Below, one piece after another: positions 15,916-49,028 of a stretch of DNA of 64,000 bases. Origin of the DNA: Malacoraja senta. Lineage: Eukaryota. Both the position numbers and the translations under genes were made by a program. Below the pieces are notes generated by a model. The model saw only the letters and a program-made list of their open reading frames with translations. It had not been told where the DNA came from and did no database searches. Each line of letters begins with the position of its first letter. Position 1 is the stretch's first letter. The stretch covers positions 21,454,001 through 21,518,000 of the forward strand of contig CM075989.1 in the NCBI GenBank assembly GCA_038087875.1. Direction: 5' to 3'.

Positions 15916-16904
15916 AATTAACCAATCGCATCAAACCTCACCTACGTGTAGGACTCTTCACCTCATTAAGTAGCAGCAGAGTGGTGGGTGTATGGAACGA
16001 GCTGCCGGAGGAGATAGTTGAGGGAGGGACTATCCCAACTGTTACGAAACATTGATACAGGCACATGGACAGGACAGGATTAGAGGGATCTGAGCCAAAT
16101 GCAGGCCGGTGGGACCAGTGTGGATGGGACATGTTGGCCGGTGTGGGCAAGTTGGGCCGAAGGGCCTGTTTCCACGCTGTAAGATTCTATGACTGAGAAA
16201 TTAGCCTGTACGAATATCCTGAGAAGTAATTGAATCTCACCCTAGTTGCAACGATATTGAATAAAATTGTTCGCTTTCTCTTCAAATGGCATCTGAAAAA
16301 CTACAGCTGAATGTTAAATGTAATCTGAATTATTCAGAATACGTACATCTATATTATGGGATAAATTCTTGAGTTTATACTTCTTTTTTAATCAAAATAT
16401 TGAATGTTTGGCAAGAGGAAAGTTTTCTCTTCCCTACCTCAAAAGCATTATCATCCGGTACACAATAATTTTGATGAATATTAAATCTGAACACTTATGA
16501 AGAATAGCACGCGGAAAGAATTCCTCTATAAACCATACATGCCAACAATAACTGTAAGCGGATGACTGTGGAAGACAAGCTTTACTAATGCATTGCCAAT
16601 TTAATTTATTAAATGAAAATATAAAAAGATGACCTTCAGTTTATAGAAATATAAATTTATGATGTTCATCATGCAAGACATGGGAACTAATTCTCTTCAG
16701 CACCAAATCAAAGCAAAAGATAACATACACCAAAGTGTTCAACATATTTTATATCATCTGTCACAGAAACATTGATATAAATGTGTCAACTCATTAAATT
16801 AATGCAATGGTATCTGTTTGCTTGCCAATTCTGGCATATTATTAATTAAAAATAAATACACTCGTAATGACGCGTCCATCAGACATCAGGACCATAAGAC
16901 TGAC

Positions 16905-17220
16905 TTTTATTTTAGTTTAGTGCAGAGATACAGTGGGGAAACAGGCCCTTCGGCCCACCGAGTCTGTGCCGACTAGCAATCCCCGAACGTTAACACTATC
17001 CCACGCACACTGGGGACAAATTACATTTCTACCAACTCAATTAACCTTCAAACCTGCACGTCTTTGGAGTGTGGGAGGGAACCGAAGATCTCGGAGAAAA
17101 CCCACGCAGGTCACGGGGAGAACGTACAAACTCCGTACAGACAAGTACCCGTAGTCGGGATCGAACCCTGGTCCCTGGTGCTGTGAGGCAGCAACTCTAC
17201 CGCTGCGCCACCGTGCCACC
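16905..17220 (-). mobile_element. Full-length V-SINE
   Basis: Reverse complement starts GGTGGCACGGTGGCGCAGCGGTAGAG and has B-box GGTTCGATCC. Confidence 0.9.
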
Positions 17221-17489
17221 CCTTTTTTAAGGAGGCCCCTCTGAAATCTCTGCTCTCTCACGGATAATTTGTGGGATATCCTGTTTTCATTCCACAAGTT
17301 TCTTCGAGTTTAACTGGAGACTTTTATTGAACAAGGGGGAAATTGGAGAGCAAATGTGATGTCATTAAACTTTCAGAAATGCTTTCAAAATTATCCCAAA
17401 TACCTAATGGGCAGAAGCTACAAGACACAAATTTGGGTGAATGAACTGTTGTCACTGAGTTGAAATAACCCAGATACGCACGAGGAGAA

Positions 17490-17528
17490 ATCAGAAGGCT
17501 GCGTGCTCAAATTACGTCGGGGTCACCA
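17490..17528 (+). pseudogene. 3' half of tRNA-Trp(CCA), positions 38-76 including CCA (extended primer-binding site)
   Basis: ATCAGAAGGCTGCGTGCTCAAATTACGTCGGGGTCACCA matches the vertebrate tRNA-Trp 3' half, as I recall it, with 2 mismatches; genomic CCA implies an RNA origin. Confidence 0.85.
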
Positions 17529-17529
17529 C

Positions 17530-17782
17530 TGTAGAGGTCCACACGTTGTGTAAACACTCCGTTTAATAATTAACCGACACAGCCCCGTCGCTCACGCGCG
17601 CATCAAGTTAATATTTAACTACTACTGTGTCGTCACTCATGAGCACACCCCAGTTAAACTCCAACCGCCTAATGGCCCGCCCCCCTGACTGCGTGATCGG
17701 TCGGCCCAGATCACGCCCGGTCCACGCAAGAGTTCGATCCCAACCAACGACAGTTCGATACCAAAATGGCTCAGCTGCCACA
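17530..17782 (-). mobile_element. Gypsy-type LTR (~253 bp)
   Basis: Minus strand TGTGG...CTACA termini, ATTAAA signal near 17562-17567, then 1 nt and the PBS TGGTGACCCCGACGT. Confidence 0.75.
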
Positions 17783-18300
17783 CATTAGCCTTTTAAACCA
17801 GAATGACGGGTTGTAAAACAGATCCAAGGGACTTACCTACACCAACGCACTATCCTGCCTGAGGGTTCTAGTCAAGTTTAGTTTAGTTTAGAGATACAGC
17901 GCAGAAACAGGCCCTTCAGCCCATCAAGTCCGTGCTAACCAGTGATCCCCCTACACTAGCACCATCCTACACTCTGGGGACAATTTACAATTCTTACTGG
18001 AACACCCGGAGAAAACCGGCGCATTCACACTGATAACGTGCAAACTCCACATAGGCAGCACCCGAGGTCGGGATCGAACCGGGGTCTCTGTTGCTGTGAG
18101 GCAGCAGCTCAACCAGCTGCACCCCTGTGCCGCCAGCTGCCTTTGCAATTAGATGACCTCAAACATATTCTGCACTGGATCTCTCCTCTTCCAAAGAAAA
18201 TTGAGCTGTGGGAATGGACAGGGAATGTCATTTAACCTAAACTACAGAAAGAAAATCGAGCAGTTCTTTTTCTGAAAGTATATGGCTTAAAACTGGAACA

Positions 18301-18457
18301 CGTCTAATAAAGAACTGCAGATGCTGGTTCAAATCGTAGGTAGACACAAAATGCTGGAGTAACTCAGCGGGTGAGGCAGCATCTCTGGAGAGAAGGAATG
18401 GGTAACGTTTCCGGTTGCCCATTCCTTCTCCCCAGAGATGCTGCCTCACCCGCGGAG
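18301..18457. mobile_element. Palindromic PLE tail unit with the ribozyme core deleted
   Basis: Inverted arms; 14-bp TSD TTAAAACTGGAACA at 18287-18300 and 18458-18471. Confidence 0.8.
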
Positions 18458-20539
18458 TTAAAACTGGAACATGTATGCCCTTCATAGGAGCAAGTCTGTT
18501 TCATGAACTTTGCCTTTGTCTCCTAGCAAGGCATTTGAAATTCTACAGCCCTAGTCTTAATTCAGATGGATCTGGATCATTCCGATTTGGTGTTGAGACA
18601 GCGATGAAACAGCTGATCGACCTGCTGCCTCACAGCGCCAGAGATCCGGGTTTGATCCTGACCTCGCGTGCTGTGTGGCGTTTGCACGTTCTTCATGAGG
18701 CCCCGTGGGTTATCTCCGGGTGCTCAGGTTTCCTCCCACATCCCAAAGACTCGCGGGTTTGCAGGTTAACTGGCCCTCTGTAAATTTCCCACGGTGATTA
18801 GGGAGTGGATGCAAAAGTGAGATAAGTTCATAAGGTCTAGGGGCTGAATTAGGCCATTCGGCCCATCAAGTCCACTCCGCCATTCAATCTCCCTCTCAAC
18901 CCCATTCTCCTGCCTTCTCCCCGTAACCCCTCAACACCCTGATAGCACAGAAAGAGTGATGAAGGCGTGATTGACGGTCCGCGTGGACGCGGTAGGTCAG
19001 AAGGGCCTGTTTCCATCCTGTATCTTTGAACTAAACTAAACAAAAATAAAACTTAACGGATGTTTTGATTTTCGTAAAGCAGTCCGTTTGGAAACTCCCG
19101 TCAGCAGTGGTTCAGGCAGATGACGTTCAGAATTGCCCACAACAAACACAGAAAATTAAAACAGCAACTGCAGCTCGCAGAAGAACACCACGTGGCTGAT
19201 TAAATGTGCCCCTTATAAATGCTGCCGATATTTGTCTATAGCCTCATCTTTATTGCAGAAAAACAATTCAATGGGTTAATATAGAGACTCCTTCAAACCT
19301 GTCAATTAATTTGGCAGATTAGCATACTTCATAAATTCATAAATCCTAGGAGTAGAATGAGGCCATTAAGTCTATTCTGCCATTCAATCATGACTGATAC
19401 ATCTCTCCCTCCTAACCCCATTCTCCTGCCTTCTCCCCATAACCCCTGACACCCGTACCAATCAAGAATCTGTTAATATCCATTGACTTGGCCTCCACTG
19501 CCATCTGTGGCAATGAATTCCACAGATTCACCACCCTCTGACTAAAGAAATTCTTCCGCATTTCCTTTCCAAATGTATGTTCTTTCATTCTGAGTCTATA
19601 GCCTCAAGTCCCAGACTCTCCCGCAAGTGGAAACATCCTCTCCACATCCACCCTGTCCAGAGTGACTTTTCACTATTCGGTAAGTTTCAATGAAGTCCCC
19701 CCCTCATCCTTCTAAATACTGCGTTCTTTGTATACTACTAATAATAAAATTAATAAGAATAATAACAACAAAAATAACATTAATAATAATATTAATAATA
19801 ATAATTAAAACAAATAAAGTGTAAGAAGGAACTGCAGATGCTGGATTAAACCGAAGATAGACACAAAAAGCTGGAGTAACTCAGTGGCCCAGGAAGCATC
19901 TCTGGAAAATAGGAATGGGTGACGTTTCGGGTCAAAACCCTTTTTCAGACTGAGAGTCGGGGGAAAGTGAAGTGTTCTTTGTTTGCTGTCTATTAAGCAA
20001 TGAACCAGCACAAACATACTCCAAATGAGACTGAATCTTTCTCAAAGTGAGAGTGTGTAACATGGACGAGATTTGAAGCACAGATGTGACATTAGTTCAT
20101 TATCACTCTGGTATCCTCATTACCTACTTGAGGGACAGACTGCTCGACACATTACGACCTCACAGTGGCGCAGCGATAGAGCTACTTCCTTACAGCACCA
20201 GAGACCCTGGTTCGATCCCGACTATGGGTTCTGTCTGTACGGAGTTTGTACGTTCTCCCCGTGACCTGCGTGGGTTTTCTCTGAGATCTTCGGTTTCCTC
20301 CCACACTCCAAAGACGTACAGGTTTGTAGGTTAATTGGCTTGGCATAAATGTATAAATTGTCCCTATTCACACTCACGCTCACATGCGTCCACATAAAAC
20401 AACAGGCAAGATACAGCGTGCAAAACAGGCCCTTCGGCCCATCGATTCCACTCTGACTATCAATCACCCTTCCACACCAGTTCTGTGTTATCCCACTTTC
20501 TCATCCACAAATGTTACAGAGACCAGTAGTGCAAGAAAA

Positions 20540-46052: not shown

Positions 46053-49028
46053 TTGTATCTTAATTCAAGGAGCATTCGTAATAAGGTGGATGAGTTGAAT
46101 GTGCAGATAGTTATTAATGAATATGATATAGTTGGGATCACGGAGACAGGGCTCCAGGGTGACCAAGGCTGGGAGCTGAACATTCAGGGATATTCAATAT
46201 TCAGGAGGGATAGACAGAAAGGAAAAGGAGGCGGGGTAGCGTTGCTGGTTAGAAAGGAGATTAACACAATAGAAAGGAAGGACATTAGCTTGGAGGATGT
46301 GGAATCGATATGGGTAGAGCTGCGAAACACTAAGGGGCAGAAAACGCTAGTGGGAGTTGTGTACAGGCCACCTAGCAGTAGTAGTGGAGTTGGGGATGGC
46401 ATCAAACAGGAAATTAGAAACGCGTGCAACAAAGGTAAAACCATTATAATGGGTCTTCAATCTACATATAGATTGGGTGAATCAAATTGGCAGGGGTGCT
46501 GAGGAAGAAGATTTCTTGGAATGTATGCGGGATAGTTTTCTAAACCAACATGTAGAGGAACCAACGAGAGAGCAGGCTATTCTAGACTGGGTATTGAGTA
46601 ATGAGGAAGGGTTAGTTAGCAGTCTTGTTGTGCGTGGCCCCTTGGGCAAGAGTGACCATAATATGGTTGAGTTCTTCATTTGGATGGAGATTGACATTGT
46701 TAATTCAGAAACAAAGGTCCTGAACTTAAAGAAAGGTGACTTTGAGGGTATGAGATGTGAATTGGCCAAGATAGACTGGCCAATGATTCTTAAAGGGTTG
46801 ATGGTGCATATGCAATGGAAGGCATTTAAAAACTGCATGGATGAACTACAACAAGTGTTCATCCCAGTTTGGCAAAAGAATAAATCAGGGAAGGTAGTGC
46901 ATCCGTGGATAACAAGGGAAATCAGGGATAGTATCAAAACAAAAGAGGAAGCCTACAAATTAGCCAGAACAAGCAGCCTACCAGAGGACTGGGAGAAATT
47001 CAGAGTCCAGCAGAGGAAGACAAAAGGCTTAATTAGGAAAGGGAAAATAGATTCTGAAAGAAAACTGGCAGGGAACATAAAAACTGACTGCAAAAGTCAG
47101 AAACAGGCAAATTGATCATGGGGAACAAGGACATGGCAGACCAATTGAATAATTACTTTGGTTCTGTCTTCACTAAGGAAGACATAAATAATCTGCTGGA
47201 AATAGCAAGGGACCGGGGGTTAAATGAGATGGAGGAACTGAGTGAAATCCAGCATAGCCGGGAAGTGGTGTTAGGTAAATTGAATGGATTAAAGGCCGAT
47301 AAATCCACAGGGCCGGATAAGTTGCATCCCAGAGTACTTAAGGAAGTAGCCGCAGAAATACTGGATGCATTAGTGATAATTTTTCAAAACTCTTTAGATT
47401 CTGGAGTAGTTCCTGAGGACTGGAGGGTAGCTAATGTAACCCCACTTTTTAAAAAGGGAGGGAGAGGGAAAACAGGGAATTACAGACCAGTTAGTCTAAC
47501 ATCGGTGGTGGGGAAAATTCTGGAGTCAGTTATTAAAGATGGGATAGCGGCACATTTGGAAAGTGGTGAGTTCATTGGACAAAGTCAGCATGGATTTATG
47601 AAAGGTAAATCATGTCTGACGAATCTTATAGAATTTTTCGAGGATGTAACTAGTAGAGAGGATAAGGGAGAACCAGTGGATGTGTTATATCTGGACTTTC
47701 AGAAGGCTTTCGACAAGGTCCCACATAAGAGATTAGCATTAGAGATTAGAGATTCCTTTATTTGTCATTCAGACCTTTCGGTCTGAACGAAATTTCGTTG
47801 CCTGCAGTCATACATATAATAATCAATAACAAAACACACAATAAACACAAATTAACATCCACCACAGTGAGTTCACCAGGCACCTCCTCACTGTGATGGA
47901 GGCAAAAGTCTTAAAGTCTCTGTCTCTTCCCTCCTTGTTCTCCCTCTGCGCTGAGGTGATCCAGGCTTCTGATGTACAAACTTAAAGCACATAGTATTGG
48001 GGGTTCAGTATTGATGTGGATAGAGAACTGGCTGGCAGACAGGAAGCAAAGAGTAGGAGTAAATGGGTCCTTTTCAGAATGGCAGGCAGTGACTAGTGGG
48101 GTACCGCAAGGCTCAGTGCTGGGACCCCAGCTATTTACAATATATATTAATGACCTGGATGAGGGAATTGAATGCAACATCTCCAAGTTTGCGGATGACA
48201 CGAAGCTAGGGGGCAGTGTTAGCTGTGAGGAGGATGCTAGGAGGCTGCAAGGTGACTTGGATAGGTTGGGTGAGTGGGCAAAGGCATGGCAGATGCAGTA
48301 TAATGTGGATAAATGTGAGGTTATCCACTTTGGTGGCAAAAACAGGAAAGTAGACTATTATCTGAATTGTGGCCGATTAGGAAAAGGGGAGATGCAACGA
48401 GACCTGGGTGTCTTGGTACACCAGTCATTGAAAGTAGGAATGCAGGTGCAGCCGGCAGTGAAGAAAGCAAATGGTATGTTAGCATTCATAGCAAAAGGAT
48501 TTGAGTATAAGAGCAGGGAGGTTCTACTGCAGTTGTACAGGGTCTTGGTGAGACCACACCTGGAGTATTGCGTACAGTTTTGGTCTCCTAATCTGAGGAA
48601 AGACATTCTTGCCATAGAGGGAGTGCAGAGAAGGTTCACCAGACTGATTCCTGGGATGGCAGGACTTTCATATGAGGAATGACTGGATAGACTTGGCTTG
48701 TACACGTTGGAATTCAGAAGACTGAGGGGGGATCTTATAGAAACTTACAAAATTCTTAAGGGGTTGGATAGGCTAGGTGCAGGAAGATTGTTCCCAATGT
48801 TGGGGAAGTCCAGAACTAGGGGGTCACAGTTTAAGGATAAGAGGGAAGACTTTTAGGACCGAGATGAGGAAATCATTTTTTACACAGAGAGTGGTGAATC
48901 TGTGGAATTCTCTGCCACAGAAGGTAGTTGAGGCCAGTTCATTGGCTATATTTAAGAGGGAGTTAGATGTGGCCCTTGTGGCTAAAGGGATCAGGGGGTA
49001 TGGAGAGAAGGCAGGGATGGGATACTGA
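46053..49028 (+). pseudogene. CR1 ORF2 (APE endonuclease + reverse transcriptase), disrupted
   Basis: YLNSRS, ITET, VYRPP, SDHN (APE); NYRPVSLTS, QHGF, DFQKAFDKVPH, GVPQGSVLGP, KFADD (RT); frameshifts, stops and an insertion at 47740-47971. Confidence 0.95.
47740..47971 (-). mobile_element. Short retroelement inserted into the CR1 RT region
   Basis: Splits KRL|YKLKAH; same family as 36085-36365. Confidence 0.8.

Follow-up and report, generated by a model that had tools for sequence, protein, structure and literature searches.

A Ty3/gypsy LTR joined to a long DNA copy of tRNA-Trp, one of a class of LTR-tRNA fusions in the genome of Malacoraja senta

How did an LTR come to be joined, in a chromosome, to a DNA copy of a tRNA primer that runs well past the primer-binding site (PBS)? 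We addressed this question at a locus in a window of 64,000 nucleotides (the whole stretch of DNA analysed), where an LTR on the minus strand is followed by one nucleotide and then by the complement of tRNA-Trp from position 76 back to position 38. This arrangement had been described in an initial annotation of the same DNA; its coordinates are exact, and the LTR boundaries are backed by other copies of the family (Table 1).

Anatomy of the element and its parent family

Table 1 Coordinates of the LTR, the tRNA-Trp copy and the adjoining host DNA in the window.
Feature	Positions	Strand	Remarks
Complete LTR, TG...CA, 253 nt	17530..17782	-	Ty3/gypsy family primed by tRNA-Trp; TG at 17782, terminal CA ending at 17530; boundaries from family copies
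One-base spacer (G), LTR end to primer site	17529..17529	-	as in family 5' LTRs
14 nt, counterpart of the family's native primer-binding site, tRNA positions 76-63	17515..17528	-	
39-nt DNA copy of mature tRNA-Trp, positions 76 to 38, CCA included	17490..17528	-	
Host bases abutting the intact TG end	17783..17786	-	no duplication at the far side; no polypurine tract
Single-copy host flank joined straight to the tRNA tail	17235..17489	-	junction common to two other organisms

A search of the genome with the window LTR gave 296 candidates, of which 40 were scored, and at least 41 matches were listed. Many of the listed matches end at query positions 49 and 301, which correspond to 17782 and 17530 of the window, and this accumulation of match ends removes the doubt, raised in the initial annotation, that 17530-17782 might not be an LTR. 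When aligned with 5 family LTRs, the window LTR is 85-89% identical to them, and a 23-nt segment that all 5 contain is missing from it. Paired family LTRs (direct, TG...CA) are found 2.9-5.3 kb apart, and the interiors that they flank encode gag, RT, RNaseH and integrase, with the domains RVT_1, RT_RNaseH, Integrase_H2C2 and rve. The pol order is that of Ty3/gypsy, with RVT_1 before Integrase_H2C2 in one copy (L065) and RT_RNaseH before rve in another (L067). The family has a tRNA PBS after the 5' LTR, a PPT before the 3' LTR and a short target duplication, and is a Ty3/gypsy LTR retrotransposon; in its Trp primer and short element it may resemble the CsRn1/Kabuki-like clade. Normal insertions of the family carry 4-bp duplications, both in three solo LTRs (two exact, one with one mismatch) and in 5/5 paired elements (one mismatch each).

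The tail was aligned with the ARAGORN-called tRNA-Trp(CCA) gene of the same genome (L038), to which CCA was added. The two agree at 36 of 39 letters, in support of the tRNA assignment, and differ at positions 61, 57 and 54. Since T57 is present in 23/43 tails, it is likely an isodecoder letter. At position 54 (17506), two other organisms carry the letter of the tRNA, and the difference is thus a later mutation in the window copy. Four tRNA-Trp genes were found in the genome, all without encoded CCA; therefore, the template was the mature tRNA. The tail runs 21 letters beyond the usual stop, and 23 of the 25 letters beyond the 14-nt primer site match the tRNA, for which the chance at a fixed place is 2.5e-12.

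The initial annotation had offered, as an alternative, a family with a natively extended PBS. Among the 29 other loci compared, 15 family 5' LTRs with a primer site were available, and in 15/15 the match to tRNA-Trp is 14 nt long and is followed by a shared leader. Full copies therefore diverge from the tRNA after 14 nt, and the 39-nt match is not native to the family. Moreover, the exact window tail (the first tight pattern search matched the window alone) and its downstream flank each occur once in the genome. Three loci with a Leu-type tail, alike after the tail (L229, L231 and L250), suggest that long tails may sometimes propagate or land at a preferred site; nevertheless, a family or subfamily with a native 39-nt primer site is extremely improbable here. 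In L003, L005 and other window-family 5' LTRs, the native site reads as an 18-nt tRNA complement without letters 62-61, to which the primer, or else the strong-stop end, might anneal if 2 nt bulged out.

tRNA-derived repeats (SINE heads), which we take to be common in the region of the window, count in favour of an LTR that inserted beside a tRNA gene or beside a LINE-made tRNA pseudogene. However, CCA is copied in the tail and is lacking from the four genes, the tail is spaced and oriented exactly as a primer site is, and the same join is found at 42 other LTR ends. ARAGORN found no tRNA gene within the window. A chance neighbourhood of this kind is hardly credible. The SINE tails of the host may be of the cartilaginous-fish type.

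The absence of gag, of a second LTR and of a target site duplication, noted in the initial annotation, was confirmed: no second LTR is found within the 64-kb window, no family interior sequence on either side of the LTR, and no 4-bp target duplication at the copy (left AATG, right TTCT). An ordinary solo LTR has a duplication on both sides and no PBS, whereas the window copy has the primer copy and no duplication; an ordinary truncated 5' LTR continues through the native PBS into the family leader, which the window copy does not. Instead, it presents a whole U3-R-U5 followed by an in-register copy of the mature tRNA past position 58, as is characteristic of read-through plus-strand strong-stop DNA.

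When 86 frames of the window were compared with Pfam, no host gene was detected, the only matches being pieces of a LINE-type reverse transcriptase with broken frames (47088-48679). An Rfam scan of 16500-18700 gave no tRNA match; miRNA models matched, below the gathering score, an unrelated near-perfect 40-bp hairpin at 18363-18459, formed by a common repeat and its inverse. At 17826-17862 (minus strand), about 45 nt upstream of the LTR, a splice-donor-like AG/GTAAGT lies 22 nt after a possible acceptor and may mark a micro-exon or have arisen by chance. [quoted passage not shown]

Read-through tails and their end points across the genome

Pattern searches returned, in addition to the four tRNA genes, 42 independent tails composed of an LTR end, CCA and tRNA-Trp sequence reaching at least position 53, in many LTR families. 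The genome has dozens to hundreds of LTR-borne copies of tRNA primers, and the window copy is one of a class. The four tRNA genes, the duplicates L060 and L108, the tandem copies on C4264 and C2253, and L136, L145, L254 and L263 were dropped before the counts, and the end of L101 was manually set to 28 instead of 37 because of a one-base deletion.

The letters opposite position 58 in the 42 independent tails are T in 29, C in 12 and G in 1. Position 58 is thus miscopied in 13/42 tails, compared with 0/262 T>C changes at the other T positions; the excess of C gives a Fisher p of 1e-11, computed on 43 loci including one duplicate pair. As position 58 was left free in the tail searches and 0-3 mismatches were allowed elsewhere, the background is lowered; with position 58 not free, C is still found there in 6/27 non-gene rows. 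Both letters occur inside one LTR family. The window tail is a read-through with the correct T opposite position 58, among the 29/42.

A length-unbiased search, needing 17 nt only, gave 65 rows that collapse to 56 loci. In this set, 28 of the 52 tails at risk stop exactly at 59 and 21 extend past 53. When the largest family, a second one to which 14 of the 59-enders belong, is left out, 14/38 tails still end at 59. The native primer site of this second family is only 9 nt long (6 native copies among 10 PBS rows), and its tails are therefore not native 18-nt sites. The leader hairpin of this second family (L147-L167), and of L118, L124, L129, L133 and L138, contains the complement of the 18-nt strong-stop end, and several of the 59-enders of the family continue as an inverted leader copy, that is, as priming on the wrong strand. 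Two further loci, L087 (G000:C4264) and L140 (G000:C2253), consist of a U5 end and tRNA tail in tandem, in units of about 52 and 40 nt, which suggests repeated re-priming.

The 42 read-throughs end at 51 and 50 (1 each), 46-39 (25), 38 (6), 35-34 (3) and 29-27 (6); none passes 27, and the 6 tails that reach 29 all end at 27-29. Other LTR+tRNA(38-76) fusions, for which the initial annotation had proposed to look, do occur: 6 of the 15 read-throughs at risk end at 38, versus 23/196 for positions 39-45 (p 0.008) and 3/58 for positions 30-37 (p 0.002). Position 38 is the commonest end among read-throughs, with a modest peak and with the compared positions chosen after the data were seen. Considering that 25/42 tails end at 46-39, away from any known block, tail ends are blurred by trimming or microhomology. 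The base that follows position 38 is unbiased (A,A,T,T,G,G), and the T found there in the window is therefore not callable as a misincorporation. The Trp tails give no sign of a stop at 55/54, with 0/21 tails at risk ending at 56-52.

These end and error positions fit RT blocks at the presumed m1A58, m1G37 and methylated G26, G37 of tRNA-Trp being, we assume, m1G. The initial annotation had read the window tail as a read-through of position 58 halted at m1G37. Read-through and a stop at 38 are supported for the class, in which 58 is miscopied and stops occur at 59 and then at 38, and a halt caused by m1G37 is plausible; the window copy itself carries the correct T, and its end may be blurred.

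A generic pattern for other tRNAs, correctly spaced, gave 139 matches compared to 63 for the control, mostly SINE heads, and exposed tails of Leu type and of Ser. The same generic pattern, mis-spaced, gave 26 matches compared to 15 and was discarded as noise. The type II, Leu-like tail has 696 pattern matches in the genome. We take its isotype to be tRNA-Leu; the tail agrees with a Leu gene at 26-29 of 35 letters, and no gene of the matching isotype is present among the loci. In a hand count of the 100 rows listed out of 696, position 58 is T in 62, A in 24, C in 13 and G in 1, i.e. non-T in 38/100 listed rows, as it is in 9/29 fetched loci. None of the 30 Leu-type loci fetched is a gene, and each follows a sequence that resembles an LTR end. 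Their ends (n=29) are in or near the variable arm in 19 cases and at 40-38 in 6, and one tail crosses a perfect anticodon stem to end exactly at 27. In the same way, C is found at position 58 in 2/6 Ser(GCT) fusions versus 0/10 genes, and one Ser(GCT) tail ends at 33. The downstream sequence shared by the Leu-type loci L229, L231 and L250 may mean either that a subfamily with a long primer site was amplified or that these tails landed at a favoured target.

Target duplications and the route of insertion

Of the Trp tails, 18/42 run on into an element interior or a second LTR, and 24/42 do not within the DNA examined. The 12 two-LTR cases exhibit an exact 4-bp duplication in L039, L054 and L102 and a 4-bp duplication with one mismatch in L081, L096, L098 and L106, that is 7/12, the other 5/12 being unreadable. 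L049, L075 and L084 are mini-elements made of an LTR, a tail, a short U5 end and a duplication, and L084 was compared with an uninterrupted copy of its host repeat. Additionally, 5-bp duplications are found in four Leu-type cases (L230, L233, L243 and L245), and exact 4-bp duplications in four 59-enders, fold-backs among them. The target duplications in many sister copies show, therefore, that integrase inserted many read-through products. Fold-backs with an inverted tRNA or LTR copy were observed at L056, L119, L139, L033 and L231, and some of them terminate in another LTR end and have a target duplication.

Among the copies without duplication, 9/9 of those in which a family partner defines the LTR start begin exactly at TG, which is informative on integrase only if the unprocessed U3 end of the family carries extra bases. 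The U3 end of the window copy is likewise exact at TG. Starts without a family partner were set by the TG motif, which is circular; 8/42 starts are undefined, and L037 is apparently 5'-truncated.

The initial annotation had proposed that the read-through cDNA was caught without integrase. Ty1 cDNA intermediates, mostly from the 3' LTR region, are caught at double-strand breaks in yeast, according to the accessible text of PMC11372161. The window copy, without target duplication, second LTR or interior, would suit such a capture of the whole cDNA at a chromosome break by end-joining, and so would L103, a no-duplication copy with a readable empty repeat copy, where about 8 nt of target were lost with a 3-nt microhomology at the tail end. 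However, end-joining usually leaves extra or trimmed ends, whereas all nine partner-defined copies start at TG, and the base before TG is the family spacer base in only 3/7 no-duplication copies with a visible spacer. As the sister copies are, in addition, often duplicated, capture without integrase is not favoured and we consider it unlikely.

Contigs of two other organisms span the junction between tail and flank, and the left junction is spanned in one; the window insertion is therefore real and old. One ortholog is about 5-6% diverged, with 22 other letters over 17232-17627. No empty site for the window locus was found among the 4 runs compared of 17, whose contigs show presence only, nor by a local search among the fetched loci that was informative for 2/18 loci only. 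At 17613-17775, one run of the same organism gives a contig that shares the flank but has 23 additional letters and 22 differences within the LTR, and a second run matches the window exactly across this gap; the discrepancy may be a polymorphic deletion, gene conversion or an assembly difference.

Present in three organisms and diverged to this extent, the insertion has had time for a later deletion, and the 18/42 tails that run on into more of an element point the same way. It could thus be what is left of a larger element: of a 5' LTR with tail and interior that later lost its downstream part, or of a full element with a tRNA-tailed 3' LTR reduced to a solo LTR. But nothing would make a later deletion stop at 38, where read-throughs most often end, and a polypurine G4 run is found upstream of the LTR start in 0/34 tailed LTRs although two-LTR elements are common in the family, which means that no tailed 3' LTRs were seen. 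A remnant is, in our view, quite improbable.

The explanation that we favour, and hold to be fairly probable, is that plus-strand strong-stop DNA was read through m1A58 and stalled before the presumed m1G37, with integrase acting at the U3 end and host repair at the tail. As the window copy has neither a duplication nor an error at 58, its own route is inferred from its sister copies. Plus-strand synthesis would normally copy the primer to 59, past the 9-14-nt primer sites of the families, and a minority of the strands would read through 58, often with misincorporation. The over-long 3' end would be unable to pair properly at the primer site and would be joined to an available minus- or plus-strand end. 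Such faulty joins could yield internally deleted two-LTR elements, fold-backs, or mini-elements of LTR, tail and short U5, which integrase would insert with a duplication. Pulsinelli and Temin reportedly obtained in 1991, in single-round vector experiments, deletions starting at the primer site after faulty plus-strand transfer, and such deletions would be similar to those of the 18 sister loci in which the tail passes into the interior. Where no LTR end is rebuilt, as would be the case in the window, the U3 end would be the sole integrase substrate and the tailed end would be patched without duplication; the LTR-only molecule might become double-stranded by synthesis from the tRNA primer, annealed anew, or from a 3' end in the chromosome. 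The window copy is best read as a one-ended integration plus repair.

Known systems and meaning of the joints

In the accessible text of PMC13191261, HIV-1 plus-strand strong-stop DNA presents a main stop before m1A58 and a minor read-through that ends before modified A37. The HIV-1 products P2-P5 resemble the tails described here, with a major stop at m1A58 and a minor one before modified base 37 (PMC13191261, PMC8599865). They were observed with tRNA-Lys3 and its ms2t6A37, either in vitro or in cells that were mutant, whereas the present elements are Ty3/gypsy with Trp, Leu-type and Ser primers. HIV-1 read-through DNA is described in these texts as an unusable template (PMC13191261) and as non-integrable (PMC8599865); here, in contrast, read-through products are fixed in the germ line, many of them with target duplications.

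HIV proviruses in which the 5' junction is intact and the 3' junction retains PBS remnants, with microhomology, are described in PMC2797772. These abnormal HIV/MLV junctions are like the window copy in that one end is intact and the other has primer letters and microhomology, with no normal duplication. They differ in being full proviruses with a partial PBS, obtained in repair-deficient cells, whereas the window holds an LTR-only insert whose tRNA sequence extends well past the PBS. Ty1 capture at double-strand breaks is similar in that reverse-transcription intermediates of the LTR region reach the chromosome; the accessible text describes no tRNA read-through (PMC11372161), and here the intact TG start points to integrase.

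As to the modifications, m1A58 is reported for human tRNA-Trp in the text available from PMC6380271, and zebrafish tRNA-seq gives RT errors or stops at m1A58, m1G37, m2,2G26, m3C32 and m3Ce2 in that of PMC11417395. The zebrafish signatures come from laboratory RT on present-day RNA, whereas the tails are genomic copies. We found no account of a genomic record of LTR-tRNA read-through in the literature within reach, which excludes older subscription papers.

RT stumbling over tRNA modifications has likely left a fossil record in the genome, with an error spectrum at position 58 of C for the Trp tails and of A and C for the Leu-type tails. We lean slightly towards a wider reading as a vertebrate 'fossil tRNA-seq', in which hundreds of dated LTR-tRNA joints would report, quantitatively, germ-line modification sites and the behaviour of extinct RTs, and in which integrase would regularly insert read-through DNA, giving rise to LTR-only mini-elements and to families with internal deletions. 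If this is true, RT stops on native germ-line primer tRNAs would be readable from assemblies, for any species or age class, and could be checked against tRNA-seq. It would bear on m1A58 as the plus-strand stop in vivo, which has been argued mainly from HIV in vitro work. Read-through products would not always be lost, and by-products of reverse transcription would be found among apparent solo LTRs and among 'long PBS' annotations.
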